Shown here in pieces: positions 16,537 to 36,124 of a stretch of DNA of 38,905 bases. The translations under genes and the position numbers were made by a program. The notes below the pieces were generated by a model, which was given only the letters and a program-made list of their open reading frames with translations, was not told the origin of the DNA and ran no database searches. The stretch is taken from positions 1 through 38,905 of the forward strand of contig JAPVWS010000481.1 in the NCBI GenBank assembly GCA_027493295.1, written 5' to 3'. Position 1 is the stretch's first letter; each line of letters begins with the position of its first letter. This DNA comes from Candidatus Versatilivorator vitaminiformans (GTDB lineage Bacteria > Acidobacteriota > Terriglobia > Versatilivoradales > Versatilivoraceae).

Positions 16537-16828
16537 GCCCCTAGTTTACCGCATCATGATCGTGCCGTACACCCACTAAGGTGCATCCTGTCCCACATTT
16601 CTCAGCGGCTTCCCGGAAGCCTTCAAACTCCGGCGGTTTGGTGGTAGACTGCGTAGGCATCAGGCTGTCCTGGAGGAATCAGGTCAAACCCTTTCCCAGC
16701 AGTATTTTACAGGATTTCCGGGACCGATGCCGCCTACCCGGGGGGAGACATTCGGGTGAACCCATGTCGATCCGTGCCGGCGGACCCATGACTGAAAGCC
16801 ATTGAAACCGCACGCCAATCTCTCAAGG

Positions 16829-18037
16829 ATGCCGGGTCGCATCCTTCCGCTGCTCTTGTTGGGGCTGCTTGGCCCCCAGTCTGTTGCCGGTCAACAGACT
16901 TTCCCCTGGAAACTGCCGGCGGGCGTACCGGCGCCTCGGGTGCCGGCAGACTCGCCGATGACACAGGAGCGGGTGGAGCTGGGCCGGCACCTCTTTTACG
17001 ACACGCGGCTCTCGGGCAACGGGACCCAGTCCTGCGCCACCTGCCACCGGCAGGAGCTGGCCTTTACGGACGGACGGGCATCAGCGGTCGGTTCCACCGG
17101 AGAAACCCATCCCCGGAGCGCCATGTCGCTCATCAATGCGGCCTACCGCGACGCCCTGACCTGGGCCAACCCGTCGCTGACGACCTTCGAAGAGCAGATT
17201 CTCGTGCCCCTGCTGGGAGCAGAGCCTGTGGAGCTGGGCCTGGCCGGACAGGAGGAGCGAGTCTACGCCGAGCTGGCACGGGACCCGGTGTATCGGCAAC
17301 TCTTCGCGTCGTCGTTTCCCGAAGAGGACTCTCCCGTCAACAGGTCCAATATCGTGATGGCGCTGGCCTCGTTTCTGCGCGCGATCGTCTCGTTCCGGTC
17401 GCCCTTTGACCGGTATCGCTTCGACGGGGAGGCCTCCGCCCTGTCGGTGGCGGCCCAACGAGGGATGAATCTGTTCTTCTCCACCCGGACCCGTTGCGCC
17501 GGCTGTCACATGGGCCACAATGTGTCCATCGATTTGGGATTGAATCTGGACGGCGGGTCCAAGACCGCCTCCAGCCCGCCGGATTCCCCGCCGGTATTCA
17601 TGTTCCACAATACCGGCCTCTACAACCTTCCGGGTCCGATCGTCTACCCCGCCGATAACACGGGCCTCCACCGGCACACGGGCGAGATTGCAGACGTCGG
17701 GAAGTTTCGAATCCCCTCCCTGCGCAACATTGCCGTCACCGCTCCCTACATGCACGACGGCAGCATTCGAACGCTCGAGGAGGTGCTCGATCACTATGTA
17801 GCCGGCGGCCGCGCCCCCAATCCTCAGCAGAGCAAATCCATCGAGCCTCTGAAACTCAGCGAGGCCGATCGGCGCAATCTGATTGCTTTCCTGGAGAGCC
17901 TGACCGATCGGCAGGCTCTGCAGGACCCTCGCTGGAGCAATCCGTGGACGGAAAGAGGCCAAGGACAAAGAGCCCGATTCCCTGCCCTACCGGGGGAGTT
18001 TGGACCTACCGATGCATTGCTGAATTGGAGTAACTAA
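16829..18037 (+). CDS. Di-haem cytochrome c peroxidase / MauG family protein
   Basis: Signal peptide, two CxxCH haem motifs (CATCHRQ, CAGCHMG), FRIPSLRNIAVTAPYMHDG and a C-terminal LTD...L.AFL.SL pattern. Start taken at ATG 16829 (the track uses TTG 16802). Confidence 0.85.
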   Translation: MPGRILPLLLLGLLGPQSVAGQQTFPWKLPAGVPAPRVPADSPMTQERVELGRHLFYDTRLSGNGTQSCATCHRQELAFTDGRASAVGSTGETHPRSAMSLINAAYRDALTWANPSLTTFEEQILVPLLGAEPVELGLAGQEERVYAELARDPVYRQLFASSFPEEDSPVNRSNIVMALASFLRAIVSFRSPFDRYRFDGEASALSVAAQRGMNLFFSTRTRCAGCHMGHNVSIDLGLNLDGGSKTASSPPDSPPVFMFHNTGLYNLPGPIVYPADNTGLHRHTGEIADVGKFRIPSLRNIAVTAPYMHDGSIRTLEEVLDHYVAGGRAPNPQQSKSIEPLKLSEADRRNLIAFLESLTDRQALQDPRWSNPWTERGQGQRARFPALPGEFGPTDALLNWSN

Positions 18038-18054: not shown

Positions 18055-18747
18055 ATGACATTCAAGTTCATTTTTGCCGGAAGCTGGTTTGTGCTGTTGC
18101 TGGTTGCTTCCACGCTGGCAGCTCAGCCGGGCCCGGTCTGCGACAACTGGAACACGCGGGAATATTTCCTGGCAGCGACGGTCGAGGACGTAACCTCCTG
18201 TCTTGAAGCCGGCAGCGAGGTCGGAGCGCAGACGGAAAGTGGCCGCACGCCTCTGCACTTCGCGGCCTGGAACAGCAAGAATCCGGTGGTGGTCAAGACA
18301 CTGCTGAAGGCGGGAGCAAAACCGGACGCTCTTAGCAAGAATGGCAATACCGCTCTGATACTGGCGGCCTGGGGGAACGGTAATCCGCAAGTGTTGGAAG
18401 CGTTGCTCGAGGGCGGGGCCGATCCGAACGTCCGGAACAAATCCGGCAACACGCCGCTGCACGATGCGGCTCGGGCAAACAGGAATCCAGCAGTCACAAG
18501 GGTGCTGCTTGTGGCCGGGGCAAACCCCAATGCTCAGGACAACAAGGGCCGTACGCCCTTGCATCAGGCGGCTGCCAGCGGCAAGATTCCAGCGGTGATC
18601 GACGTCCTGCTCGATGCCGGAGCCGACCCCAATGCGCGGGATGCGGAGGGCAAGACTCCCTGGGACCTGGCCCAGGCCAACGAGGCGCTCAAGCGAACCA
18701 GGACCTATATTCGCCTTCACACGGCTCAGTTCGAGTCGTCAAACTGA
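18055..18747 (+). CDS. Secreted ankyrin-repeat protein (about 5 ANK repeats)
   Basis: Signal peptide MTFKFIFAGSWFVLLLVASTLAAQ, then repeated G.TPLH.AA......V...LL.AGA.PNA units. It starts 17 nt after the peroxidase stop. Confidence 0.85.
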   Translation: MTFKFIFAGSWFVLLLVASTLAAQPGPVCDNWNTREYFLAATVEDVTSCLEAGSEVGAQTESGRTPLHFAAWNSKNPVVVKTLLKAGAKPDALSKNGNTALILAAWGNGNPQVLEALLEGGADPNVRNKSGNTPLHDAARANRNPAVTRVLLVAGANPNAQDNKGRTPLHQAAASGKIPAVIDVLLDAGADPNARDAEGKTPWDLAQANEALKRTRTYIRLHTAQFESSN

Positions 18748-18889: not shown

Positions 18890-19072
18890 TTTGCGGCGTC
18901 GCGATTGCCCCCCTCCCCATCAGCCTTCGCCTGCGGCTCGGCTTCTGCGACTCCCCCTCCAGGGGGGAGTGATAGAGTTCTGCTGGAAGCCTTGTGCTGG
19001 CCTCAATCACTCCCCCCTGGAGGGGGAGTCGGTGAGACAAGGGCTCCGCCCGCAGTCGAACCGGTGGGGGGG
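18890..19072 (-). repeat. Family-3 MITE/REP-like element, copy B (inverted relative to copy A)
   Basis: Its reverse complement aligns to 10588-10769. Core arms are at 18949-18973 and 19006-19030. An extra partial duplication of CATCAGCCTTCGCCTG lies just outside (18862-18877 vs 18919-18934). It overlaps the 3' end of the MFS gene. Confidence 0.8.
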
Positions 19073-20590
19073 ACGGAACCGGAGAAAAGCGTCGGCCATC
19101 TGTGCACCGTCAAGCCCTCTTTCCGCGAAGCCGGCCCTCAGCGCCTCGACCGCGGAGGAATCGACAAGCACCCGCGGATTTTGCCTGATGGCCTCGAACC
19201 GCCCCTGGCCAAGCGCGGCTCTGACGGATTCCGAGACGGTTTCTTCCAACCTGGATGAGAAGCTCGCCGTCAACACCACCCCCAACACGGCCAGACCCAG
19301 CGTGCCGCTGAACAATCTGGAGAACTGAAGCGCCGAAGTTGCGCTGCCGACCAGCCGGAACCGCACCGAGTTCTGGACGGCCAGGTTGCAGGTGGACATG
19401 GTGCCGCCCAGTCCCAGCCCCGTCAGTGAGACGTAGGCCACCGCCCGGGCAAAGCTCGTAGTTTCGTTCATGGTGGAGATGAGATAGATGCCCACCGCCA
19501 TGGCGCCCGAGGAAATCAGGGCCTGCCTGCGATAGCCCTCACCGGTTTGGGAAAGTCGCCGCCCGGACACGATGGCGCCGATAACCATTCCAAGCATCAT
19601 GGGGGTTAGCAAACCGCCGCTTCCGGTCGCGGTCGAGCCCAGCACTCCCTGGAAAAACAGCGGCGTGAAAAGCGCTGTGCTGTGCAATCCAAAACCGGTC
19701 AGGACGGTGATCATCACGGAAACCGCCACCGCCCGGTTTCTGTAAATCTCCAGGGGCATGATGGGAGAATCCGACCTCGACTCGATCACCAGGAAGATCA
19801 CAGCCATTGCCAGCCCGAAACCCAGCAGTCCGCCGACCTGAAGCGAATCCCATGGGTAGTGAACGCCTCCACGGGAAAGCGCGATCATCAGGGAGGCCAC
19901 CGCCAGTGCCAGGGTCACCATTCCGGCGTAGTCCAGCTTTCGTTCTTCGACCCTGGGCGCGACTTGGGGAAATGTCCGGGCAAGCAACCACAACACCGGA
20001 ATTCCGGCCGGCACATTCATCAGAAAGACCCAGTTCCAGGAAAAGTTGTCGGTGATGAAACCTGCCAACGGCGGTCCGATCACCGAAGACATGCCGTAGA
20101 CAAGACCGATCCAACCTATGTACCTGCCCCGTTCTCCCGGTGGAAACAGGTCGGCGGCGGCAGCGAAACTGTTGGCCATGAGGATTCCGCCACCCACGCC
20201 CATGACCGCCCGGGCAGCAATGAGCTGGTTCATGGACTGGCTCAGGCCGGCCGGAATCGAGCCGATCATGAAAATCGCCAGGCCCAGGATGAAAAAAATC
20301 CTGCGTCCGAAAATATCGGCCAATCTGCCCGCGATGGGAATCGCTATGGCGGAGGCAATCAGGTATGCGGTCGAAGCCCAGGTGTAGCGGTCGAAACCGC
20401 CCAGGTCGGCAACGATGCGCGGCATGGCAGTGGCGATGTTGATCTGGCTCACCGCAGCCAGAAACATGGCCAGCATCACCCCGGTCATCGTCAACAAGAG
20501 CTGTTTCCCGGAAAGTTGCAGGGAGCCTCCCGCCGCCGATGGATCGGGAGCGACTCTCGTTCCGTGTTTTGGATCCCGGTTCAATGGCAT
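19007..20590 (-). CDS. MFS transporter, DHA2 (EmrB/QacA-like, 14-TMS) drug:H+ antiporter family
   Basis: 527 aa with the MFS motif GRLADIFGRR after TM2 and about 14 hydrophobic segments. The last 21 codons and the stop codon are encoded by repeat copy B. Confidence 0.85.
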   Translation of the reverse strand: MPLNRDPKHGTRVAPDPSAAGGSLQLSGKQLLLTMTGVMLAMFLAAVSQINIATAMPRIVADLGGFDRYTWASTAYLIASAIAIPIAGRLADIFGRRIFFILGLAIFMIGSIPAGLSQSMNQLIAARAVMGVGGGILMANSFAAAADLFPPGERGRYIGWIGLVYGMSSVIGPPLAGFITDNFSWNWVFLMNVPAGIPVLWLLARTFPQVAPRVEERKLDYAGMVTLALAVASLMIALSRGGVHYPWDSLQVGGLLGFGLAMAVIFLVIESRSDSPIMPLEIYRNRAVAVSVMITVLTGFGLHSTALFTPLFFQGVLGSTATGSGGLLTPMMLGMVIGAIVSGRRLSQTGEGYRRQALISSGAMAVGIYLISTMNETTSFARAVAYVSLTGLGLGGTMSTCNLAVQNSVRFRLVGSATSALQFSRLFSGTLGLAVLGVVLTASFSSRLEETVSESVRAALGQGRFEAIRQNPRVLVDSSAVEALRAGFAERGLDGAQMADAFLRFRPPHRFDCGRSPCLTDSPSRGE

Positions 20591-21028: not shown

Positions 21029-21673
21029 ATGGCAGCTCAAATCAAGTGGAGCCGTCGAGAGGGCATACTGATTGCCGCACCGATCGGTCGTATCGATGGA
21101 AACAACTACATTGAAGTCCAGAATGCCCTGGAAACCGGAATCGATCCCGACGAACGCGCCATGATCCTGGACTTTGCCCAATTGGGCTACATCAGCAGCG
21201 CCGGTCTGCGCGTTTGCCTGATCATCGCCAAGAAATTCAACCCGGCCGGCAAGGCCTTCGGGATCTGCAATCTCTCCGAATCGATCCGAGAGATTGTCAC
21301 CGTGAGCGGCTTTCACGGGATCATGTCGATTTACGATTCGCAAAGCGCGGCCATCGAAGCCATCACCGGGAAGGCCGACGTCGGCGGGGATGAGGCAGCA
21401 GCACAAGCATCCTCGACCATACCGATGCGCGACTCTGTCGATTTCGACATCATCGGCGAAAACATCCAGCACATCGCCAACTTCACCATCGAGAAATACG
21501 AGTACCAGAATGACCGCACTCTTACGCTCAAGGAGCGGGAGGCGGTGGTTGCGGGAATCACCAATGCCCTGTGGCAGTATATTGAGCGCTTGAAGACCCG
21601 GCGCAAGCAGCTTCTGACGGAAATGTTCAAATCCGCCGAAACAGTTCTCGAACGGGTCGTCGCAAAATCGTGA
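21029..21673 (+). CDS. STAS-domain protein (anti-sigma-factor-antagonist-like) with ~95-aa helical C-terminal extension
   Basis: SD AAAGGAG 7 nt upstream. The SpoIIAA-like core is LDFAQLGYISSAGLRVCLI...ICNLSESIREIVTVSGF. The C-terminal tail has no motif I recognise. Confidence 0.7.
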   Translation: MAAQIKWSRREGILIAAPIGRIDGNNYIEVQNALETGIDPDERAMILDFAQLGYISSAGLRVCLIIAKKFNPAGKAFGICNLSESIREIVTVSGFHGIMSIYDSQSAAIEAITGKADVGGDEAAAQASSTIPMRDSVDFDIIGENIQHIANFTIEKYEYQNDRTLTLKEREAVVAGITNALWQYIERLKTRRKQLLTEMFKSAETVLERVVAKS

Positions 21674-21907: not shown

Positions 21908-24415
21908 CTACAGGGCGGATTTCCGAATGTCCCTGTGAGTCAGAAAGTCGCGATAACGCGCAAAGGCGGCGTTGATGTCCTCGCGCGTCAGACCGTAGTC
22001 CCCCAGGTCGTAGCGATGCCGTGGCTCACTGCGGCGGCGCTCCGCTTGCCGGAACAGCCAGTCGTCCATTGTGTTGATCGTCCCTCGATCGAGCGGCCAG
22101 TTGAACCGCTCATAGATTGTGTGGACGACCGCCATGGGATCCTCCACCAGATCGACGTAGTTCACGTCAAACCAGCGGTGCTCCAGTTCGGAATGGCTTT
22201 CCCGGAATTGAACGGCCCTGTCCATCATGCCGCTCATGAAGGCCAACTGCTCGGCGCCGAACTCGTTCGCAGGCAGGGGCTCACTGGAAAGGGAACGTAC
22301 CCGCTCCACCAGGCTGTTCCAGGATCCCATGAACTGCGAGGGCTCGCGGTGGGTCTGGATGAACAGGGCATCCGGGTAGGTCTCGATGAGGGTTTCCAGT
22401 TCCATGAGGTGAAAAGGCATCTTGAGTAGCCATTGGCCCTGGCGCCCGGGCTCTCGCTGCCGCCGCTGCCAGGCGAAATGCTGCAGGGTGCGGCGATGGT
22501 AGGCGTAAGCCTCTCCGGAACCGTTGGCGTTCAGCCACCGGCCATATTCCGGCACGTGGAATCGAGAGGTCGTGACCCATGCCGAGAAGGCCATCCTGAA
22601 GATCGGGAAATCCTCTTCCGGTTCGTCGACGTTGAAATCGTGAATGCCCTCCAAGACCTTGAAGATGTCGGATGCCCGCAGCGCTTCCTCGGTTCGCGCC
22701 CGGCGAGGGTCCTCGGGTGTGCCCGCAACCGTAGCGTACTCATCTGTCGAGAGGACCGGCTCGGCGTACTCGTATAGCCGCAACGTCCAAAACCGCCTGT
22801 CGCGAGACATCAGCCGGTGCAGGTAGGTCGTGCCGGTGCGGTTGATGCCGACGATGAACACCGGCCGCGGGATCGGTTCCCCTTCGATCTCGGGGTGCTG
22901 CCGCCGTTCGCGGGCCAACCGTGCGTTGTTGCGCAAGAAACGGTTCATTTCAAAGGCGACGTCGCCAATCCTATCCTCCAACAGTCGCGCATCCGGTGAG
23001 TTCAGAGCTCCGACCAGTTGCTGCAGACCCTGACGCATCCACTCCGGACAGGCCGAGTCGAAGGGAACGCCCTCGTCAGCGGCGTAGCGCTCGGCCCGGG
23101 ACGTCAGGCAGTCGAAGTCCAAACGGGTTTGCGGAACCCGATACGGCCAGTCTTCCCGGTGGTCCCTGACCCACTGTCCAGTGCGTCTCAGCTTGGTCAA
23201 CATGCCCAGCCACCTGATCGGGCGCGAGCTGTCCTCGCGGATGGCGCGGTCGCAAATGGGCAGCCTGTCCTTCGGCTTGTTTTTGCTGAACCAGTACTTC
23301 CCCAAATGATCGAACACCGCCCAGTGGCCATGGAGCGGGGAATTCTTGCCGCGCGCCTGGCAGGCGCGCTTGAACGCCTCGTAGGGAACCTCGGGCCAAT
23401 AGAGCCCGAAATCGGCAGGTTCCAGGTCGTAGTGATCCAACTGCGGGTTGCAGCAATGGTAGATCGTGAAACGACGTTGGGGATTCAGAGAAATGGCCGT
23501 ACAGGCTTCGCTCAGCGCATCCACCGCTTCGTTGCTGGATCGAAAGGTGAATTCCTCGGGCAACGTTTCGGAATCGACCACCGCGGCAAACAGGCGCACG
23601 CTGAGATCCTGCTCCGGGGTATATCCCTCGCTGGACAAACCGGTTTGCGGCAGCCGAAAAATCGCCAGCGGCATACCGGCCTGTTGCGCGAACAGGAGTA
23701 CCTGCTCGGATGTCAGTTTGCTCCACGGGTAGCCGAGAAATCCCAGCGGGAACATTCTCTTCATGCTTTGGAGATCCGGTTGCATCTGGTGGTCGATGCG
23801 GCTGTCTTTGAATTCATTTGCGAAGCTGCAGAAATACTGGGGGAACACACCCATGGTCGAGGCGTAGAACAGGTGCTTGAAGCGTTTGCGCAAGCACAAT
23901 TCGAGCACGTTGCGGGTGCTGAACGTATTGACCTTGCGTATGGCGAGATAGGACGACACAAGATCGATGGAGGCCGCAAGATGATAGGCGGCATCAATCC
24001 GCCGGCAAAGGGCATCAAAATCCGCTTCGCTCAAGCCGAATCGCGTCTCGGCGACGTCACCGACTGCGACGCGTATGCGCGGCGCGAAGGATTCGTCCCA
24101 GATGCCGGCCCGCTCGAGGGCGGCGCGTATGCGTCCGAAACCGTGCTCGACGCTTTTGGCCCGGACAATGCAATGCACCAGCAGCTCGGGGTTCTGTCTC
24201 AAGAGGTCGCGCAGGAAGAAACGACCGATGAAGCCGGTAGCCCCGGTCAAGAATACCTCCCTGAAATCACTCGGAGAAACGGCGGCAGCCGGCGCCTCCC
24301 GGCTGACTGTCTCATGAACGAATCGACGCAGGGTATCGACGTCCTTCTGACAATGCCGCGGCAAATTGCCATCGAGCGGCGCCACCCTCGTGTCGGCGGC
24401 GGTTCTTTCAGGCAT
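21908..24415 (-). CDS. Bifunctional thioester-reductase (SDR/NAD_binding_4-type) - sulfotransferase fusion protein (SwfB-like)
   Basis: 835 aa with SD GGGAGGGAAAG upstream. The N-terminal half has the Rossmann motif FLTGATGFIGRF (aa 55-66) and the catalytic GYPWSK YxxxK (Y229/K233), typical of terminal reductase/fatty-acyl reductase domains. The C-terminal half has the PAPS 5'-PSB loop IVGINRTGTTYLHRLMS (aa 521-537) and a THREPSQFMGSWNS 3'-PB-like motif. Confidence 0.85.
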   Translation of the reverse strand: MPERTAADTRVAPLDGNLPRHCQKDVDTLRRFVHETVSREAPAAAVSPSDFREVFLTGATGFIGRFFLRDLLRQNPELLVHCIVRAKSVEHGFGRIRAALERAGIWDESFAPRIRVAVGDVAETRFGLSEADFDALCRRIDAAYHLAASIDLVSSYLAIRKVNTFSTRNVLELCLRKRFKHLFYASTMGVFPQYFCSFANEFKDSRIDHQMQPDLQSMKRMFPLGFLGYPWSKLTSEQVLLFAQQAGMPLAIFRLPQTGLSSEGYTPEQDLSVRLFAAVVDSETLPEEFTFRSSNEAVDALSEACTAISLNPQRRFTIYHCCNPQLDHYDLEPADFGLYWPEVPYEAFKRACQARGKNSPLHGHWAVFDHLGKYWFSKNKPKDRLPICDRAIREDSSRPIRWLGMLTKLRRTGQWVRDHREDWPYRVPQTRLDFDCLTSRAERYAADEGVPFDSACPEWMRQGLQQLVGALNSPDARLLEDRIGDVAFEMNRFLRNNARLARERRQHPEIEGEPIPRPVFIVGINRTGTTYLHRLMSRDRRFWTLRLYEYAEPVLSTDEYATVAGTPEDPRRARTEEALRASDIFKVLEGIHDFNVDEPEEDFPIFRMAFSAWVTTSRFHVPEYGRWLNANGSGEAYAYHRRTLQHFAWQRRQREPGRQGQWLLKMPFHLMELETLIETYPDALFIQTHREPSQFMGSWNSLVERVRSLSSEPLPANEFGAEQLAFMSGMMDRAVQFRESHSELEHRWFDVNYVDLVEDPMAVVHTIYERFNWPLDRGTINTMDDWLFRQAERRRSEPRHRYDLGDYGLTREDINAAFARYRDFLTHRDIRKSAL
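21911..22867 (-). other. Sulfotransferase domain of the fusion protein, approx. aa 517-835
   Basis: GxxRTGTTxL P-loop-like PAPS-binding motif and a downstream HRxPxxxxxS motif. Boundaries estimated by eye. Confidence 0.7.
23216..24259 (-). other. Reductase (R) domain of the fusion protein, approx. aa 53-400
   Basis: TGATGFIG and YxxxK motifs. Boundaries estimated by eye. Confidence 0.7.
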
Positions 24416-24458: not shown

Positions 24459-26231
24459 TTACATCGCTGCCGAGTGTGTGAACCGGTCTCCCTGGGCGCT
24501 CACGGCGGACCGGAACAACGCCAGGGCATCATCGATTCCATCGCCCAGGTAGCGGAATTCATCGGGTATCGACGCATGGCGCACACCGGTTTGTGCGATC
24601 AAGGCGTGCTTCTGTTTCTCGATTCCTTCCACATCCCGAACATCGTTCGAAACGGATTCCTTGAACCTCTCCAACTCGGTCGCCAAATACTGCTTGAAGT
24701 CGCCGATGGCAATCTGCTGACTGGTGATTCTTTCAAAGTGGTAGCCCAGCGCAGCCAGGCGGATCGCCTCCGGGAGCAAGCCGGGATGGTCCCTGGAGAC
24801 CTTGGCGATGAACTTGGTATAGGCCGGGATCTGCTCGGCGGAAAGTTGTCGGCGAACAGACATGATGGCCAAAAAAAGCGCGTTCCTGCTCATCGGTTTC
24901 AGCAGATGCGGGATGGGCCTGAGGTGTTCGAGCAACGTCAGGCAGCGCATGAAGTATTTCTCGAGAGTCGGGTCATAGATGGTGGTGATGACGCGGCGGT
25001 ATCCCTCCATCAATGTCTCGATATCCATCTCCGGCTTGAAGTTGAGGGCGACGTTGACACTGGTCAGGTTCAGGACGCCGTCGGCGCTGCTTCCGAAGGA
25101 CTCGTCCAATAGCCGGTTCTCCCTTTTGAGGCGATCATACAGATTCGTGTCTTTCAGAGCGTTCAACAATCCGACCATGGCCATGGGAATGCCGACTCCC
25201 TGTATAAAATCGATCTGGGCATCGAAGGCGCCCTCGTCATCATCATCCAGACCCAGGATGAATCCTCCATCGACCCGCATCCCTTTCCGTTGGATCTTGC
25301 GAACGCAGTTGAAAAGATAGTTCTCTTCCCGCTTGCTGACGTTCTGCGGTTTCTTCATCTTGCGCAACGCCTTGGGATTGGGCGTTTCGATACCCAGAAA
25401 CACGGAATTGAAACCCGCTTCAATCATGCCGTCCATCAATTCATCCAAACGGGCCAGGTTCACGCTGGCTTCGGTGAACAGGGAAAACGGATAGCCACGG
25501 GCTTTCTGCCACTCGGCAATGGCACACACCAACTTCATCGCTTCTCGCTTGTTGCCGATGAAATTGTCGTCAACCAGGAAAACATGGCTGCGCCAGCCCA
25601 GTCGATACAGCAGTTCGAATTCGTCCAGCACCTGATCCGGCAACTTTGTCCGGGCCACGCGACCGTAGAGCTTGGTAATATCGCAGAATTCACAGTCGAA
25701 CGGGCATCCACGGGAGAACTGTATGGACATGGAGTAGTAGGCCTTCATGTCGATGAGGTCGAAGCGCGGAACAGGTGTCCTGGTCACATCCGGTTTTCGC
25801 GGCTCGCGGTAGATGGCTCTGGCCGTGCCGTTTTCCAGGTCCCGCAGAAAATCGACAAAGGTCTCCTCGGCCTCATCCAGCACAAAATGGTCTACACCGC
25901 CGATCTCGCCATGATAGGTGGTGGGATAGGGACCTCCGGCCACCACGGGGATGCCGGCCCGGTTGCATCGCTGCGTTACGGTGTGCAGGGATTCCCGCTG
26001 GACAACCATGGTGGAAGTAAACACCAGGTCCGCCCACTCCAGATCGGCATCCTCCAAGGGAGCCACGTTCATATCCACGACGCGCAGGTTGTATTTCAGG
26101 GGAAACATGGCGGCGACGGTCAGCAGACCCAGAGGAGGAAAGGCAGCCTTGATGCGGAAGATCTCCAGCGCAAAATTGACTCCCCAGTAGGAAGGAGGAT
26201 ATTCGGGATACACCAGAAGCGCGTTCGGCAT
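24459..26231 (-). CDS. B12-binding-domain radical SAM protein, paralogue 2 (SwfC-like)
   Basis: Start set at MPNALL (ATG 26231, GAGG 6 nt upstream) by homology with the paralogue. It has an N-terminal cobalamin-binding-type domain (PPLGLLTVAAMFP...VVAGGPYP), CxxxCxxC as GCPFDCEFC (codons 25683-25706), and a long helical C-terminal domain of the kind seen in DUF4070-type class B radical SAM enzymes. Confidence 0.85.
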   Translation of the reverse strand: MPNALLVYPEYPPSYWGVNFALEIFRIKAAFPPLGLLTVAAMFPLKYNLRVVDMNVAPLEDADLEWADLVFTSTMVVQRESLHTVTQRCNRAGIPVVAGGPYPTTYHGEIGGVDHFVLDEAEETFVDFLRDLENGTARAIYREPRKPDVTRTPVPRFDLIDMKAYYSMSIQFSRGCPFDCEFCDITKLYGRVARTKLPDQVLDEFELLYRLGWRSHVFLVDDNFIGNKREAMKLVCAIAEWQKARGYPFSLFTEASVNLARLDELMDGMIEAGFNSVFLGIETPNPKALRKMKKPQNVSKREENYLFNCVRKIQRKGMRVDGGFILGLDDDDEGAFDAQIDFIQGVGIPMAMVGLLNALKDTNLYDRLKRENRLLDESFGSSADGVLNLTSVNVALNFKPEMDIETLMEGYRRVITTIYDPTLEKYFMRCLTLLEHLRPIPHLLKPMSRNALFLAIMSVRRQLSAEQIPAYTKFIAKVSRDHPGLLPEAIRLAALGYHFERITSQQIAIGDFKQYLATELERFKESVSNDVRDVEGIEKQKHALIAQTGVRHASIPDEFRYLGDGIDDALALFRSAVSAQGDRFTHSAAM

Positions 26232-26273
26232 GTCAAGCCTCATTGGCTGTCGCGCAAGATTCAGAGCTTTCTT

Positions 26274-28016
26274 CTACACCGCCGCCGAGCGGGCGAGGCG
26301 GTCCGCCTGAGCATTCACAGAGACCCGAAAGGACTGCAACGCAGACTCGATTCCATCTCCATAGTATCGAAAGTCTTCCGGAATCAATTGGTTGCGCGCC
26401 TGAGCTCGCACGAACAACTCCTGCCTCCGAGCTCGGATCTCCTCCACTTCCTGAACGGAACTTGAAGAGGTTTCCCTGAAAATTTCCGCCTCGGCTTCCA
26501 AAAATACCTTGAAGTCGTGGATTGCCATCTGCTGGCGGGTGACCTTTTCAAAATGGTAGCCCAATGAGGCCAGGCGAATCGCCTCCGGGAGCATTCGGGG
26601 ATGGTCCTTGGAAACGCTGGCGATAAACCTCATATAGGCAGGGACTTGCTTGGCGGAAAGCTGCCGGCGCAGGCCCATCATGTTCGCATAAAGCGCGATC
26701 TTGCTCTGAGGTTTGTGCAAGTGCGGAATGGGTGTGAGGTGCTCGAAGAACGTCAGGCAACGCTCGAAGTAGTTCTCCAGAGTCGGGTCGTAGACGCTGG
26801 CGGTCACGCGCCGGTATCCCTCGATCAACGCTTCGGGATCCATCTCCGGCACGAAGTTGAGGGCCGTGGAGGTCGTGCCGATGGAAACCTCCAATAGCCG
26901 ATTTTCCGACTGCAAGCGTCGATACAGGTCGGTTCCCTTCAGGGCGCCCAACAACCCGATCAAAGCCATCGGAATGCCGGCCTCCTGAATAAAATCGATT
27001 TGCAGATCGAACACGCCCTCATCATCCTCGTCCAGGCCCAGGATGAACCCTCCCATGACCTGCATCCCTTTCCGCTGGATGGTTCGGACGGAATTGAGAA
27101 GGTAATTGTTGTCCCGCTTGTCGATGTTCTGAGGTTTCTTCATCTTCAGCAAGGCCTTGGGATTGGGCGTTTCAATACCCACGAACACGGAATTGAATCC
27201 GGCTTCAACCATGACGTCCATCAATTCATCCATGCGGGCCAGGTTCATGCTCGCTTCGGTGAACAGGGAGAAGGGATATCCACGAGCCTGCTGCCATTCG
27301 GCAATGACCCGAAGCAGCTCCATTGCAGCTCGCTTGTTGCCGATGAAGTTGTCGTTAACCAGGAATAGTCGCCCACGCCAGCCCAGTCGATACAAGGCCT
27401 CAAACTCTTCCACCATCTGATCCGGCGACTTGGTCCGGGCCACGCGACCGTAGAGCTTGGTGATGTCGCAGAACTCGCAGTCGAACGGGCAGCCTCGGGA
27501 GAACTGAACGCACATCGAGTGGTAACTCTTCGTATCGATGAGGTCGAAGCGCGGGACGGGTGTCCGAGTCATATCCGGCTTTCGCGGCTCGCGATAGATG
27601 GCATCGGCCGTGCCGCTCTCCAAGTCACGCAAAAAGTCGCCAAAGGTCTCCTCCACCTCATCCAGCACGAAGTGGTCGACACCTTGGATCTCATCGTGGA
27701 AGGAAGTGGGGAAGGGGCCCCCCGCCACCACGGGAACGCCGGCCCGGTTGCACCGCCCGATGACGGACTGGAGGGAATCGCGTTGAACGATCATGGTGGA
27801 GGTAAACACCAGATCCGCCCAGTCCAGGTCCGACTCCTCCAGGGGAATCACATTCATATCCACCACGCGGAGGTCGTAGTGCGGCGGAAACATCGCGGCG
27901 ACGGTGAGCAGACCCAAGGGTGGGAATGCTGCCTTGATGCCCAGCATATCGAGTGCAAAATTCGCACCCCAATAGGAAGGGGGGTTTTCGGGATAAACCA
28001 GCAGAGCATTCGGCAC
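26274..28016 (-). CDS. B12-binding-domain radical SAM protein, paralogue 1 (SwfC-like)
   Basis: GTG start with SD GAAGGAG 5 nt upstream. It has the same architecture as paralogue 2, with GCPFDCEFC at codons 27468-27491. Confidence 0.85.
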   Translation of the reverse strand: MPNALLVYPENPPSYWGANFALDMLGIKAAFPPLGLLTVAAMFPPHYDLRVVDMNVIPLEESDLDWADLVFTSTMIVQRDSLQSVIGRCNRAGVPVVAGGPFPTSFHDEIQGVDHFVLDEVEETFGDFLRDLESGTADAIYREPRKPDMTRTPVPRFDLIDTKSYHSMCVQFSRGCPFDCEFCDITKLYGRVARTKSPDQMVEEFEALYRLGWRGRLFLVNDNFIGNKRAAMELLRVIAEWQQARGYPFSLFTEASMNLARMDELMDVMVEAGFNSVFVGIETPNPKALLKMKKPQNIDKRDNNYLLNSVRTIQRKGMQVMGGFILGLDEDDEGVFDLQIDFIQEAGIPMALIGLLGALKGTDLYRRLQSENRLLEVSIGTTSTALNFVPEMDPEALIEGYRRVTASVYDPTLENYFERCLTFFEHLTPIPHLHKPQSKIALYANMMGLRRQLSAKQVPAYMRFIASVSKDHPRMLPEAIRLASLGYHFEKVTRQQMAIHDFKVFLEAEAEIFRETSSSSVQEVEEIRARRQELFVRAQARNQLIPEDFRYYGDGIESALQSFRVSVNAQADRLARSAAV

Positions 28017-28069: not shown

Positions 28070-31000
28070 CTAAACAGCGGATTCTCTCACGGTACCGGAT
28101 GCCACATCTCGCGGATGGAGAAAGTGGTCTTCTCTTGCGCTCGCAAAAACCGATGGTGCGCGGCGGGCGCGCTGCTGGACACTTTGGGCGGCATCCTCGG
28201 AAACGGCCGTATCCGCCTCGGCCGGATCGTCCTCGACATTTTCTTTTCCGTGGATGATCCCCCGTGCCAGCGACAGACAGGTGGCGGTAGTCATCAACTC
28301 GAGGGCGCTCACCCGGTAGTTGAACTGCGTCTGGATGAACGTGCCCAGCTCGGCCACCGAGATGGAGGTGAGTCCGAAGCTGGCCAGTGGCTCCTCCACG
28401 CCACCCTCCTCGTGGCCGCAGAGCTCGGCGACCTTGGCAGCAATCTGCGCCACCACGCTCTCGAGCGTCAACTCGCCCTCCACACCAGCCTTGAAGGCGT
28501 CCTGATTGTTCATCAAACGCCCGGTGCGCATGTAGTCCGGGTAGTCGGTCGTCCAGGCCGGGTGCTTGAACACGGCCGTAATCAAGTGGTCCCGATCGGG
28601 CATGGCGCGCAGGGCATAGTCGAGGTTGGCGATGGCGAAGTCGCTGCTGACCGGCGGAAGGCCCGCGGCCCTCATCATGCGCAACACGGGGAGACTTCGC
28701 GCGGCCATGCCGGCGTCGGCGACAGCGGCCATGCTGTAGGACAAGCCGGGAAGGCCCTGACGGCGGCGATAGGCCGCAAAACCGTCCAGAAATGCGTTGG
28801 CCGCGCTGTAGTTGATCTGTCCGGGATTGCCCAGGGCCGAGGCAGTCGAGGCGAACAGAACAAAATAATCGAGCGGGCAACCCTCGGTGGCCCGGTGGAG
28901 ATGGAGAGCTCCGTGAGCCTTGGGTGCGAAAACCGTTGCCATGGATTCGGCCGACAGATCGTCCAGCAAACGGTCGTCCAGCGCGCCGGCGAGGTGGAAC
29001 ACACCCTTGAGCGGCCTTTTGAGTTGCGACACGCAGCGTCGGACGTCATCTTCCACCGCCACGTCGCCCGATACGATGTCGAATTCCGCATCCTCATCCA
29101 TGTACACGAGAGCGCTCGAATGACGGACCCACTCAGTGTCCCGACGTCGCTCGGGGTCGCGGTCCATCAGGGTGATATGGCGCGCGCCCGCGGCCACCAG
29201 GTAAGGCAACAGTCGCAGTCCGAAGCCGCCCAGGCCGCCGGTCACCAGATAGGTCGCTTCGGGATCCAAAAACGGCCGCACATCGGAAACCGTGAAACCC
29301 GCATCGCCGGCAGCCTCGGGAGCTTTCAGCACCAGTTTCCCCTGGTGGCGACCGGACGTCATCAGGCGAAGGGCCTTGGCATAGTCCTTGAACGGAAAGA
29401 CGGTGACCGGAAGCGGCGGCAGCGCTCCTTGGTCGAGCAAATCCAGGCAGGACTGGGAGAGCTCGCGCGACAGATAGGGGTCATCGATCATCAGACGGTC
29501 CACGTCGATGGCAGCGAAACGCAGGTTCTTGCGGAAGATGCGCAGACCTAGGGCGTTGTCGGCGTAGATGTCGACCTTGCCGATTTCGCAATGCCAGCCC
29601 CCCGGGCGCAGGGCCTGCAGACAAAGTTCAACCTGGCGTCCGGCCAGTGAGTTCAGCACGACGTCGACGCCCTCGCCTGCGGTCGCCGCCATCAGGTCGT
29701 CATGCCAGGCGAGGCTGTGCGAATCGAAAGCCGCTCGCACGCCCAGCGACAGCAATTGCTCCCGCTTGTCTTCACTGCCGGCAGTGGCGTATATCTCTGC
29801 TCCCACATGCTTGGCCAGCGCGATGGCGGCCTGTCCGACGCCGCCCATGGCCGAATGGATGAGGACTCGCTGGCCCTTGCGCAGGCGGGCCAGGTGAATC
29901 AGGGAATAGTAGGCGGTAACATAGACCGACAGAACCGAGGCGGCTTCTTCCATGCTCAGGCGGTCCGGCTTCGCGAAAACGAGGGATTGGTTGACCACGA
30001 CGCGATTGGCGATGCAGCCGCCCTGTATGAACGCTACATCGTCACCGGCGCGGCAACCCCGCACCTCCGACCCGACGCGTCGGACGATCCCGCTTCCTTC
30101 CATGCCGACTTCACGCCCGAGGGCCGAGCGCTCATAGGCCGAAGCCGGCAACAGGCCCAGCGTGACCATGACGTCGCGAAAATTGAGGGCGGCTGCCGTC
30201 ACTTCGATCTCCACGTCGTCCGGACCCAACGGTGGGAGCTCGCAGGTTTTCATCTCGAGACCGGCGATCTGCCCCGGATTGTCCAGAGTGAGCCGGTAGG
30301 CAAGCTCATCACCCGCGGATACCCGGGAATACCGCTCTGTAATGTCAACCCACCTGGGCGCCCACAAGCGGTTCGCCCGCACGGCCAATTCGCGCTCGCG
30401 CAAATCGCACCGAGCCAGCCAGGCCATCGTTTCCAAATCGCCGGGATCACCCAGGTCCACCAGGCGAAAATCGATCCGGGCTTCCTCGTCGATTTCCATG
30501 GCCATGCTGCGAACCGCTCCCCACAGCGCACTCCCGCGCGGATTGTCCACATCGAGCACGGTTCCGCGCGTCACCACGGTCAATCGGCACCAGTGGTTCG
30601 CATTCTCCACCCTGTAGGAGACCAGAGCCTGGACAAAGGCAACAAAACGCGACACCGCCTTTTCCCCCGTCGGGTCTTCTGGTTCCTCGCCACAAAAGAA
30701 GTCGATGGCGCTCAGGTCGGCCGCCTGCGGCCACGTTTCGAGCAAATGGAGCGCGTTGGCGGCGAGAGCTTCATCGGGGACCGGATACGCATCCGGCGCA
30801 TCGAGCAGGGCCACCCAGTCCGAGGCCCAGCTTCCCGGCTCCCCGAGCACCCATCGCGAGCCCGAGGGCTCCGTGGAGTCGGGAATTTCCGCGCGGGACT
30901 GCGGCGCCTGCAGCAGGGTCTTGCGCTGCCCGGCTCGAACGACAGTCCAACCGGCGACGGGCCGGATGACTTCGCCCTCGCCATGAGAGACCAGGGCCAA

Positions 31001-34000
31001 GCCGCCGGCCACCGCCAATCGGCGCGCCAGTTCCCATTCCTCCGGCCGGACCGCCCCGCCATCCCCATGCATAAAAATGATTTCGGCGCTACCCGGACGC
31101 AGCAGACCCGCATCCAGTTTCGGTTGAGCAGCCGGGTCGAGGCGCTCGAAACGCAAGGCGGCATCGCGTTGACCGTAGGCGTCGTAGTGAGCCCAGGCAC
31201 TCTCTTCGGTATCGCCGACCAGCCAGAACTCGGTCTGTGAGCCGGCGTTCGAGAGATGGTCGATGCACTGATCGAGAAGGGTCTCCTCCGGCTCCCGGCA
31301 GCCCGCGAACTCGACCACGTGACAGGCGTAGGGTTCGCCCTGTTCCGGCCTTTCGAGGGCGGCAATCAGGGCAGCGGGTTCGATCTCGCCGTCAGGAAGT
31401 CTGTCGGCAAGCCGTTGGCCAGCGGAAACGAACTTGGGCTGCCAGGATATCCGGTGCTTGCTTTCGGGCAGGTCGTTCCATCGCGGATTGGAGGTGAAAT
31501 AGGTGTATTCGCCGATATGGGCAACGAGGTCTCCGGTCGCGCTGTCGTAAAGACTGACGCTGCCGCCGGACCGTTCGCCCCGGCGAACGGAATACTGGCC
31601 CCGCTCGTTGGCATCCATCCAGTCGTCGCGGGGCTTGGTCACGTGACAGGTGATCCGCGGGCCGGAGGGCGGGCGAAAGAAGGTCACCCCTTCGGCGCGC
31701 TGGGGGATGGCAAACAGGTCGGCGGCGGTCAGCAAATGGTACAGAAAGATCTGCAATGCCCCGTCGAACAAGGGAGGACACGAGACGTAGCCCTCTTCCC
31801 GACCCGTCGTCCATAGCTCCTCATCCATCTCGACGTCGAAGAGATAAGCCTTCGATACCGTATCCACCAAAACGCGTTGGATGGTCCTGAAAAAGGGACC
31901 GTACTGGAACGTCTCGCTAAGGACCGCTTCCAGGCGCTCGTAGAAATTCCGGTCGTCCGCGAGAAACGAGGGCTTGAAGTGGGTCGTATCGATGTTCGCC
32001 AGCCGGCACGGTACCTCCACCGCATGGTCGTCGCCCAGCAGGCGCACCTTCCCGCGGCAGTGCAGCTCACTCTTCGCGTCAACGTCGTAGCGCCGGGAAG
32101 AAATGGTGAAGGTCCATTCGTCCGGAGCCGTGGTCACCGGTTGCAAGTCCGTTTGCAGGCGTACCGGCGTCTTGGGAATGGGGCAGGGCTGGAGGAACTC
32201 TATCACCTCGAAGCAGGCCGGAACGCCCCCCAGGGCTTCCAGGATCAGTTCGATGTAACCGGCCCCCGGCATGATCGCCGCATGGTGGACGCGGTGGTCT
32301 GCCAGCCAGGGAAAGTCCGTCTCGGAAAGCCGCCCCTCGAAGAGCAGGTGATCGACAGGAACCTTGTGTCCGACCAACGGCCCATGGGAGTACTCGCCCT
32401 GTCGGACAAACATCTCGTTGTCGCACAGGATATCCATGGTGGCCTGCTCTTCTCTCGGATGGCCCGGCAGCAGATGGGCGACCGGCTCCGGCCGCGGATA
32501 CTGGGCGGCGAAGTCCAGATCTACGCCAGCCATGAATAGCGCACCCAGAGCCTGGTTGAAGCCGAGGCACACATCGCTGTCTCTCATCAGAGTCGGAATA
32601 CAGGCCGGCACCGGCACACTGCATTCCAGGCACTGCGCGATGGTGGTTTGCAGGGCGCTGTGCGGTGCGATTTCCAGCACCACGTCGGGTCGATATTCCC
32701 GCCGGACGGTTTCCATGGCAGCCGCGAAACGCACCGGCTGGCGAATATTCGACCACCAGTAGGCGTTGTCCAATCGCTCTGTCTGCACGCCGGTCACCGA
32801 GGAAATGAACGGCAGGTCGGCGTCGAAGGCACAGGCGTCGAGAAAGGACAGGGCGGCCAGCGCGTCGTCCTTGATCGGGTTCATGGCGGTGGAGTGGAAG
32901 GCGATATTGCCCGGCAGCAACTGGTTCTGCAGTTTGCGTCGGTCCAGCTCCGCCATGATGGGCCGCAGGGCGGCTTCCTTGCCGCAGATGACGGTGTTGG
33001 CCGGCGCGTTCTCGCAGGCGATCTCCACTCGGGTCGGTCCTTCCTCGGGCCGGAAGGGAACGTCCAGCGTTTCGAGCATTTCCTCCACGCCTGCCCGGTC
33101 GAGGCCGACCGCCAGCATGCGGCCCGAACCCGCAATGCGCTGTTGCAGGGTGGCACGGTGAAAAACCAGTCGGGTGGCGTCTGCCAACGACAGCGCCCCG
33201 CAGGCGTAGGCTGCAGCGACCTCGCCGGAGCTATGGCCGACCACGCAGTCCGCATGGACTCCCCACGTCTTGAGCAATTCCACCAGGGCGCACTGGATCA
33301 TGAAAATGACCGGCTGGGCCAACTGGACTTCATCGAGTTCCTCCTGGCCGGCCGAAAAACAGGCATGGCGGAGCGATCTGTCCGAGTGCTCTCGCCAGTG
33401 TTCCTCAATCGCATCGATTACGCGGCGGAAAACGGGGTGGGCGTCGTAAAGTGCGCGGCCGCAACCGGCCCACTGCGTGCCCTGCCCGGCGAACACCAGG
33501 GCCACCCGCCGCTCGCTCTCATCCACCGTGGCCACCGGCGCTGGGCCTTCGATGAAGAGGTCAAGCGCCTCGACCAGTTCTTGCCGGTTGCGCACCGCAA
33601 AGGAGGTACGCGCAGCGAAGTGGGTCCGGCGGCGGCTGAGATTGCCGGCCAGCGTGTACAGATCCATTTCCGACTCGCCCAAGGCTTCGCGCAACTGCTG
33701 CGCACTGCGCGTCAACAAGCCGGAGGTGCGGGCCGACAGGGGAATCATGTGGCCGGCTTCCGGCGCCAGCGCAACCGACCAGAGCCGCGGCTGCGCAGGG
33801 CGGTATTCCCGCACCACGCAGTGCCCGTTGGCGCCGCCAAAGCCGAACGAATTGATGCCGACCAGGACAGGAGGTTCGGGAAAAGGCTCACACGTCGTCT
33901 GCACCTGCATGGGGCAGTTCTCGAAATCGATCTCGGGATTCGGCACCAGGTAGTTCTTCGAAATCGGCGCGAAGGTGCGCCGCTGCATCATCAACACGAC

Positions 34001-35334: not shown

Positions 35335-35598
35335 CTATCTCTTTTCGGTCAGCCGGCCGGACAGGTACTTGTGGATGACGCTGGACAAAAGTGTCTGATA
35401 GAAGATCCCTTCTTCCCTGGCCCTTGAGTGAGCAAGGTTGAAGTCACGCTCGGTTACGCGCAAATTCACCCGCTTGGTCTTGTTAAAGGTATTGCGAGCC
35501 GACCGGCGGGCTATCTCGATTTCGCGTTCAGCATCGGGAGTGGAGCGCAACTCTCCCCTTTCGAACCGATTCAGAATGTCACGTTCTTCCACACTCAA
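35335..35598 (-). CDS. CopG/RHH-type antitoxin (BrnA-like)
   Basis: 87 aa. ...FERGELRS....E.....A......K.KRVNLRVTERDFNLAHSRAREEGI.YQTLLSSVIHKYLSGRL is the pattern of CopG-family antitoxins paired with BrnT-like toxins. Its TTG start overlaps the upstream toxin-remnant stop (TTGA). Confidence 0.7.
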   Translation of the reverse strand: MSVEERDILNRFERGELRSTPDAEREIEIARRSARNTFNKTKRVNLRVTERDFNLAHSRAREEGIFYQTLLSSVIHKYLSGRLTEKR

Positions 35599-35786: not shown

Positions 35787-35993
35787 CTATGACGACAACC
35801 TGCGGAATTCTTCAATCCGGACTTCGGCATCCTTCAAAGGGTCTTCCACAACGCTGAAGTATTCTCGGATCGCAGATTCAATATTTGCGAGGGCTTCCGC
35901 CTCCGTCTTTCCCTGAGACCAACAACCGGGCAAGCCGGCTGCCGACACACTGCAACCCTCGTCAGACTTGTGAAGGGCAATTTTGTACCTCAT
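35787..35993 (-). CDS. HicB-like (UPF0150) antitoxin-family protein, no adjacent hicA
   Basis: 68 aa from ATG 35993, with SD AAGGAGG upstream. MRYKIALHKSDEG.SVSAAGLPGCWSQGKTEAEALANIESAIREY is a typical HicB N-terminal domain. The longer 107-aa track ORF merely reads through the tRNA gene. Confidence 0.7.
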   Translation of the reverse strand: MRYKIALHKSDEGCSVSAAGLPGCWSQGKTEAEALANIESAIREYFSVVEDPLKDAEVRIEEFRRLSS

Positions 35994-36034
35994 GGGATCC
36001 TCCTTGAGGTTGTGGGCTGGAAGCGTCTTCAACT

Positions 36035-36124
36035 TGGCGGAGGCGGTAGGATTCGAACCCACGGTACCCGTCAAGGTACAACGGTTTTCAAGACCGCCGC
36101 AATCGACCACTCTGCCACGCCTCC
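36035..36124 (-). tRNA. tRNA-Ser (anticodon UGA), type II with long variable arm, CCA encoded
   Basis: Folded by hand. The acceptor GGAGGCG pairs with CGCCTCC. The anticodon stem is GCGGT/ACCGT around the loop CTTGAAA. The variable arm is 18 nt. The T arm is GTGGG-TTCGAAT-CCTAC, followed by discriminator G and CCA. It is closely parallel to E. coli tRNA-Ser(UGA). Confidence 0.95.

Follow-up and report, generated by a model that had tools for sequence, protein, structure and literature searches.

The swf gene cluster, named for 'sponge symbiont widespread fatty acid synthase', was described in sponge metagenomes by Della Sala et al. (2013, Environ Microbiol Rep 5:809, PMC3908369). In the published clusters swfA codes for a synthase of 2349-2361 aa with the domain order KS-AT-DH-ER-KR-ACP, swfB for a protein of 832-839 aa in which a thioester reductase (R) is joined to a sulfotransferase (ST), and swfC for a B12 radical SAM protein. 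In the original description swfC is optional: it follows swfB, lies between swfA and swfB as in a poribacterial genome, or is not there at all. A contiguous R-ST was noted elsewhere only in coccidian type I fatty acid synthases (FASs), and an alkyl sulphate, possibly methylated, was proposed as the product of the cluster (PMC3908369). The present study concerns a 38,905-nucleotide stretch of DNA from Candidatus Versatilivorator vitaminiformans (GenBank assembly GCA_027493295.1, contig JAPVWS010000481.1), the whole of which is called the window here, and in particular the gene at positions 21908-24415 on its minus strand. Judged from its sequence, this gene is the orthologue of swfB and closes a swf operon of four genes in an Acidobacteriota (Terriglobia-like) genome, because architecture, size, signature motifs and synteny all agree with the published cluster. 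It should be noted that the reading favoured here was reached independently in the 2013 paper. The kind of system and the proposed function of R followed by ST have been in the literature since then, and the window adds no new concept to them.

It was found that the gene occupies exactly the coordinates first given for it, and its strand is the minus strand, as for all swf features described below. It starts with ATG, about 9 nt downstream of the Shine-Dalgarno sequence GGAGGG, and codes for a protein of 835 aa, identified through its ORF translation, its Pfam and NCBIfam domains, its homologues and its match to PMC3908369. The initial annotation, made from the letters alone, had read this protein as a reductase fused to a sulfotransferase. 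This was confirmed, with both domains matched by Pfam and both active sites intact: NAD_binding_4 covers aa 56-292 (E 5.7e-47, 160.5 bits against a cutoff of 20.1) and Sulfotransfer_3 covers aa 518-776 (E 1.6e-33). The four motifs quoted in its support were found at the numbering given for them, TGATGFIG at aa 57-64, YPWSK at 229-233, GINRTGTT at 523-530 and HREPSQFMGS at 689-698. Over 120 clusters of proteins, each about 835 aa long, are 65-90% identical to SwfB.

The four genes of the operon, swfA, two copies of swfC and swfB, follow each other on one strand with intergenic gaps of 53, 30 and 43 nt. Pfam matches, active-site motifs and AT signatures identify swfA (28070-35146, 2358 aa) as the gene of a predicted monomodular, fully reducing type I polyketide synthase (PKS)/FAS of the order KS-AT-DH-ER-KR-ACP. 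Its acyl carrier protein domain (ACP; aa 2234-2295, 28262-28447), recognized by Pfam PP-binding and by the serine in GLTSIS, is the presumed carrier of the SwfB substrate. Pfam analysis of SwfA bore out the earlier statement that the synthase ends in ACP with no thioesterase (TE), R or C domain, and a Pfam scan of window ORFs yielded no thioesterase, nor did one turn up in three divergent genomic contexts. The AT signature QCALVEL is exact (aa 618), and FAGQGTQW (aa 552) differs by one substitution from FSGQGTQW. The active-site motifs of KS, AT, DH, ER, KR and ACP are intact. Strict textbook regular expressions had missed those of KS, DH, KR and ACP, and the idea of inactive SwfA domains was dropped when inspection showed the catalytic residues in slightly variant contexts.

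Between swfA and swfB lie the two genes for B12-binding radical SAM proteins with a DUF4070 domain (Pfam, NCBIfam), of 580 aa (copy 1, 26274-28016) and 594 aa (copy 2, 24459-26243). They are tandem paralogues with 70% identity and are closest to B12-dependent C-methylases. The single swfC of most other loci matches both of them at about 65-75%. The duplication may point to methylation at two sites or to methylations in succession. Gene content, the size of SwfB, the size and domain order of SwfA, the AT signatures and the proposed product are all as in the published swf, whereas two tandem swfC genes between swfA and swfB set the window apart from the published clusters with one swfC or none.

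The R half of SwfB (aa ~20-412, 23180-24358) is predicted to be an extended short-chain dehydrogenase/reductase (SDR) of the thioester-reductase type, as judged from profile matches to solved R structures and from the extent of R-only homologues. Its best structural profile match is the R domain of the myxalamid synthetase MxaA (4u7w, E 1e-46), followed by a type I PKS R (8v1x), a carboxylic acid reductase (CAR, 5mso) and a nonribosomal peptide R of M. tuberculosis (4dqv). The fatty acyl-CoA reductase 7eoz matches at E 4e-07 only. SwfB R has in common with these four domains the TGxTGFxG motif, the S/T-Y-K triad, the extended-SDR fold, an N-terminal helix and a C-terminal subdomain, and its Ser-Thr and YxxxK positions line up with those of the solved R structures in profile alignments. 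MxaA and the other R domains of nonribosomal peptide synthetases (NRPSs) and PKSs act in cis and have no tailoring domain after them, whereas SwfB R is in a separate protein and is followed by ST. MxaA carries out a four-electron reduction by which the chain is freed as a primary alcohol, an outcome that does not transfer to SwfB by sequence.

Conservation was read from 99 R-ST sequences with identities as low as about 30%, namely that of the window, those of the 80 loci described below and 18 from distant representatives. In the NAD(P)H-binding motif TGATGFIG (24224-24247), recognized by sequence and conservation, G58 and G61 are kept in 99/99 sequences, T57 and G64 in 98 and T60 in 97. Ser186 and Thr187 (23855-23860), which align with 'VST' of MxaA, belong to the S/T-Y-K catalytic triad; the first is Ser in 97/99, and the second is Thr in 92 and Ser in 7. 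The catalytic Tyr229 and Lys233 of YPWSK (23717-23731), aligned with GYAQSK of MxaA, are invariant in all 99. In one additional homologue outside this set (P0063 in alignment A1) Cys takes the position of Tyr229. Arg85, which follows the second beta-strand, is kept in 92 of the 99, and we assume that it would fit the use of NADPH.

The ST half was earlier set against the sulfotransferases of the CurM/Ols type, being coupled to a reductase instead of a TE. The ST of CurM and olefin synthase (OLS; 4gbm, 4gox) is like that of SwfB in being a sulfotransferase dependent on 3'-phosphoadenosine 5'-phosphosulfate (PAPS) at the off-loading end of a PKS. In CurM/OLS the ST is paired with a TE and acts on a beta-hydroxyacyl-ACP, and the sulfate is lost during decarboxylative olefin formation, whereas in SwfB the partner is R. 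A close kinship with the CurM/OLS sulfotransferases could not be upheld. In the profile matches the ST half comes closest to two mycobacterial enzymes, with E 2.7e-50 for Stf1 of M. tuberculosis (2zq5) and E 1e-37 for Stf9 of M. avium (2z6v). Residues 396-835 were modelled with AlphaFold2 (pLDDT 88.8, pTM 0.88), and Foldseek superposed the model on Stf1 with a TM score of 0.85 on the target over 403 columns and on Stf9 with 0.80 over 423 columns. Against CurM ST and OLS ST the TM score was 0.30-0.31 on the query and about 0.45 on the target, with 14% identity and E of about 1e-4. The model thus places the SwfB ST in the Stf1/Stf9 branch and not in the CurM/OLS type. The CurM/OLS ST-TE class was rejected for SwfB, the fold match being remote and no TE being found in SwfB, SwfA or the scanned window ORFs. 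Stf1 and Stf9 resemble SwfB ST end-to-end, including an N-terminal helical extension, with 26-27% identity and PAPS-binding motifs in common; they differ in standing alone, as enzymes of about 384-414 aa to which no reductase is fused. A literature search gave no substrate assignment for either of them.

The Stf1/Stf9-type domain, delimited by the model, Foldseek and the profile matches, spans aa ~428-835 (21911-23134) including its N-terminal helices. The 5'-phosphosulfate-binding loop GINRTGTT (22826-22849) aligns with GLVRTGTT of Stf1 and GMPRTGTT of Stf9, and its R526, G528 and T530 are invariant in the 99 homologues. The 3'-phosphate-binding motif HREPSQFMGS with H689, R690 and S698 (22322-22351) aligns with THRPVETIMAS of Stf1 and HRDPYKATGS of Stf9. 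Glu601 (22613-22615) is a candidate catalytic base, as it is invariant and, in profile alignments, the sole acidic residue of the DEPEED stretch that is kept in both Stf1 and Stf9. E601, K665, H669, H689, R690 and S698 are each found in 99/99. No SDR catalytic or PAPS-binding residue of SwfB is missing in the alignments to solved structures, and the key residues of both halves are invariant in all 99 homologues. This removes one way in which the initial annotation could have failed.

Between the two halves, a linker of about 115 aa (aa ~400-515) with no motif had been described, for which a role in docking or carrier recognition was considered. Neither the linker nor this role was sustained. 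The region is highly conserved, with many invariant Trp, Asp, His and Pro residues over aa ~357-517, and it belongs to the two flanking folds. R-only homologues align as far as aa 403-412, and stand-alone sulfotransferases of about 400 aa align from aa 428-460 with 27-60 residues of their own further N-terminal. In the model, well-defined helices at aa 434-447, 458-472 and 480-506 lie ahead of the P-loop strand. The alignment limits, these helices and the nearly end-to-end superposition on Stf1 and Stf9 together leave no unassigned 115-aa linker. As modelled, aa ~400-515 is the end of the R domain plus an N-terminal helical extension of the Stf1/Stf9 type, with a joint of at most about 15-30 less confident residues.

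A tie of SwfB to a carrier protein is supported by its fused relatives. An exhaustive HMMER search of 1.8 billion representatives for R-ST homologues showed that the whole didomain (query aa ~3-831) aligns in one stretch at the C-terminus of far larger proteins. P0122, a protein of 3179 aa from a bacterial contig, is a single chain KS-AT-DH-ER-KR-ACP-R-ST with 47% identity over R-ST, and there is no radical SAM gene in its neighbourhood. P0138, P0144 and P0152 are ACP-R-ST, and P0139 is a multimodular PKS ending in R-ST; the named carriers of such fusions are apicomplexan or chromerid (Rhytidocystis, Gregarina, Chromera). In P0122 and the apicomplexan/chromerid PKS/FAS proteins the R-ST aligns with that of SwfB without a break (30-47% identity) and keeps every catalytic residue; it lies there in cis, whereas SwfB is a separate polypeptide that would have to reach the SwfA ACP in trans. 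As the fusions place R-ST right after the carrier protein, they are the strongest available support for a trans-acting release module. The description of SwfB as 'stand-alone' is correct for the window, where it is a separate polypeptide, but is not a defining trait, the synthase-embedded R-ST being a second natural form. The gene of P0122 is directly followed by a convergent gene for a 4'-phosphopantetheinyl transferase (L081:17585-18334); no such transferase was found among the window ORFs scanned.

A second link between the split and fused forms lies at the extreme C-terminus of SwfA. The post-ACP motif RRAPSVFASAREDHF (aa 2328-2342, 28121-28165) was recognized by its conservation in SwfA orthologues and in P0122. 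Across 72 SwfA orthologues its consensus RR(A/T)-PS(V/A)FA-x-A-x-EDHFP shows at least 80% conservation. In P0122 the motif lies between ACP and R, and a variable spacer after it runs into the conserved SwfB N-terminus. The split swfA/swfB therefore looks like a fission within that spacer. We infer that SwfB may dock to this motif or recognize it; as a candidate for such a role the motif is more credible than the supposed linker in SwfB.

In a reference scan with one genome per species 191 relatives were obtained, and the best 80 loci, all from metagenome-assembled genomes (MAGs), were analysed, their arrangements being read with the window proteins as tblastn probes. These best 80 span about ten phyla and include Acidobacteriota, Latescibacterota, Nitrospirales, Alpha- and Gammaproteobacteria, Tectimicrobiota, Binatia, Gemmatimonadota, Opitutales, Rhodothermales and Caldilineaceae, the nearest SwfB relatives (90-94%) being from Terriglobia and 'Candidatus Versatilivorator' (Acidobacteriota). 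The order swfA-swfC-swfB was found in about 50 loci, swfA-swfB with no radical SAM gene in about 11 and swfA-swfB-swfC in about 8, and most of the others end early upstream. The order of the window, with two swfC genes, was seen in only four of the 80 (L002, L003, L004 and L022), each of which belongs to a close relative within the Acidobacteriota. Among the loci with full flanks, L056 alone has no swfA within 10 kb. As swfA adjoins swfB nearly universally and swfC varies, swfB appears genetically locked to swfA, with the radical SAM gene accessory. The loci with swfA and swfB only, together with P0122, show PKS plus R-ST to be a sufficient unit. The GC content of the swfC-swfB segment is 0.555-0.62 and that of swfA and most flanks about 0.62-0.65; the lower GC and the patchy distribution over phyla suggest that the swf locus has spread horizontally. 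In six loci (L015, L017, L036, L061, L068, L077) in-frame stops lie inside the tblastn-defined swfB match, which may stem from faulty assembly or frameshifts in long-read MAGs or may mark pseudogenes.

Taken as a mechanism, SwfA would iteratively build a saturated acyl chain on its C-terminal ACP, and SwfB would act in trans as the missing terminal module of SwfA. The R domain would reduce the acyl-S-ACP thioester with NAD(P)H to the aldehyde and further to the primary alcohol, and the ST domain would transfer sulfate from PAPS onto the new primary hydroxyl to give a long-chain primary alkyl sulfate. Both radical SAM paralogues would probably add methyl branches, in an accessory role. We consider the full course from acyl-ACP through alcohol to alkyl sulfate to be fairly probable. 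Within it, what we infer is that the substrate is bound to ACP, that the reduction takes four electrons, which hydroxyl receives the sulfate, and when and by what chemistry the radical SAM step occurs. The motifs of all the reducing domains in SwfA are intact, and a fully reduced chain would carry no hydroxyl except the one made by R; the order of R then ST in the fusion, with no other hydroxyl at hand, favours sulfation of this primary alcohol. The initial annotation had proposed a module for release followed by sulfation. The module is favoured by the fusion, the intact sites, the coupling to an ACP-terminated synthase and the cis fusions, while the choice between aldehyde and alcohol as the endpoint of R cannot be read from the sequence.

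A number of observations weigh against this course of events. For the R half, NCBIfam TIGR01746 (thioester reductase) scores 188.2 bits on aa 54-357, under its cutoff of 213.35, and a thioester-reductase study states that the two- or four-electron outcome is not predictable from sequence. For the synthase, iterative highly reducing enzymes often skip reductions and could leave in-chain hydroxyls (PMC3908369). Modelling of the full-length fusion had been suggested along with the proposal, and the AlphaFold2 model, built from a 22-sequence alignment, was poor (mean pLDDT 52, pTM 0.32) and unusable for the C-terminal subdomain of R and the R/ST interface; the model of aa 396-835 was used in its place. 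No linked genes for PAPS supply were found in the window or in the three divergent contexts. On the side of the product, long-chain alkyl sulfates are not known as widespread metabolites of sponges or their symbionts (PMC3908369), and aliphatic sulfates are called rare in a review. The function of swf was still called unknown in surveys of 2022 and 2023, and the literature found, which consists of the descriptions of 2013-2014 and later surveys, yielded neither biochemical nor metabolite evidence on any swf cluster.

Other assignments of the two activities have to be considered beside it. It could be that R frees an aldehyde or alcohol and ST sulfates another hydroxyl, either a secondary one in the chain or at the beta position, left by a skipped DH or ER step and possibly still ACP-bound, or one on an unrelated acceptor. 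The habit of skipping reductions and the unpredictable outcome of R would both allow this, and STs of the CurM type act on a beta-hydroxyacyl-ACP (PMC3908369). On the other hand the DH, ER and KR motifs of SwfA are intact, and the R-then-ST fusion is kept from bacteria to apicomplexans as a continuous unit at 30-90% identity. The simplest account of this conserved order is that the product of R is the substrate of ST, and sulfation of another hydroxyl is unlikely, if worth keeping in view. In a further reading the sulfate made by ST on the freed alcohol is a transient leaving group, and the alkyl sulfate is displaced or eliminated by an unlinked enzyme or by the radical SAM protein, which would yield an alkene, an ether lipid or an alkylated product. 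In CurM and OLS, the sole well-studied PKS-embedded STs, sulfation has the established role of activation, widespread alkyl sulfates have not been reported from sponges (PMC3908369), and a radical SAM gene is present in most loci. Such a fate is nevertheless quite unlikely. SwfB ST is only remotely related to these enzymes, no TE or other partner is conserved beside swfB, and the loci with swfA and swfB only and the single-chain P0122 have no further linked enzyme. From the chemistry, an unactivated primary alkyl sulfate, unlike the intermediate of CurM, has no beta-carboxylate to drive elimination.

A bolder version, which we hold to be very unlikely, is that the long-chain alkyl sulfate formed by R-ST is no end product but an activated alkyl donor. 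Enzymes outside the operon, or the radical SAM proteins, would then move or rearrange its chain, for example into hydrocarbons or into ether-linked or branched lipids. If true, it would mean a sulfate-activation logic for fatty alkyl transfer common to symbiotic bacteria of about ten phyla and to apicomplexan PKSs. Lastly, SwfB might not off-load SwfA at all and might act on acyl-CoA or free fatty acid derivatives of primary metabolism, with SwfA left to an unlinked thioesterase or acyltransferase for release. Fatty acyl-CoA reductases such as 7eoz also fall under NAD_binding_4, isolated thioester reductase domains accept acyl-CoA in vitro (thioester-reductase study), and L056 carries swfB with no swfA nearby. 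These points are outweighed by the best R matches, which are carrier-protein-dependent (MxaA, type I PKS, CAR and NRPS R, at E 1e-46 to 1e-21 as against 4e-07), by the nearly universal adjacency of swfA, by the covalent ACP-R-ST fusions and by the post-ACP motif common to split and fused forms, so that an independent SwfB is highly improbable. Release of the SwfA chain by R and sulfation of the resulting alcohol by ST is the reading that we retain.

Outside the swf core, the neighbourhoods of the three divergent contexts are not conserved, apart from a gene for a STAS-domain protein. In the window this anti-anti-sigma-like protein (Pfam STAS) is coded at 21029-21673 on the plus strand, convergent with swfB. 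A STAS gene lies within 10 kb in 43 of the 80 loci, usually just upstream of swfA (for example L082:1-70 and L083:12571-13218), and an equivalent ORF stands beside swfA in the fosmid table of 2013 (PMC3908369). It may be a regulatory fourth component of the swf cluster. Upstream of swfA, at about 0.9 kb, lies a tRNA-Ser(TGA) gene (36035-36124, minus strand), and between the two are small antitoxin-like ORFs on the minus strand at 35335-35598 and 35787-36110, which by eye are RHH/BrnA-like and HicB-like. As the ORF at 35787-36110 overlaps the tRNA gene, its 5' part is probably not real, and it has no similarity to the small hypothetical ORF between STAS and swfA of other loci. This island-like context, with the tRNA and antitoxin-like ORFs and the low GC of swfC-swfB, is consistent with horizontal acquisition.

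Downstream of the cluster, a DHA2-family efflux transporter of the major facilitator superfamily (MFS) is coded at 19007-20590 on the minus strand and is syntenic in close Acidobacteriota relatives (81-88%); a more distant MFS protein (41-49%) adjoins swfB on the opposite strand in several loci of Latescibacterota and others (L029, L030, L033, L034, L041). It is possible that the MFS transporter exports the product. An ankyrin-repeat protein with four repeats (18055-18747, plus strand) has counterparts at the same position in the Acidobacteriota loci nearest to the window (L001-L004, L022 and L028) with 75-91% identity, and ankyrin-repeat genes are enriched in sponge symbionts. About 15 kb from swfB, at 5340-6764 on the minus strand, lies a gene for a transporter of the Na+/sulfate-symporter family (DASS/CitMHS), which could be related to sulfate supply; the family also carries di- and tricarboxylates. 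No sulfatase gene recurs in the window and the three divergent contexts. In the divergent locus L082 only, swfB is followed, at a distance of a few kb, by genes for a TauD-family dioxygenase (16643-17491) and an 871-aa alpha/beta-hydrolase. Alkylsulfatases of the AtsK type are members of the TauD family.

The swf locus is among the most widely shared biosynthetic loci of sponge-associated and other uncultured bacteria, and the R-ST off-loading unit also terminates large PKSs of apicomplexans and chromerids. The window offers a clean and complete four-gene example with a duplicated radical SAM gene, although it is not more testable than the published ones. The case for a release module is strengthened by the fusion forms, the invariant residues, the affiliation with Stf1/Stf9 and the SwfA tail motif, and the fused P0122 and the tail motif are useful handles. 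If the proposed chemistry is true, swf would provide a biosynthetic route to primary alkyl sulfates, natural anionic lipids of a surfactant-like kind, and would be the first such route to be defined; the same chemistry would also account for the product having escaped standard lipid work-ups.

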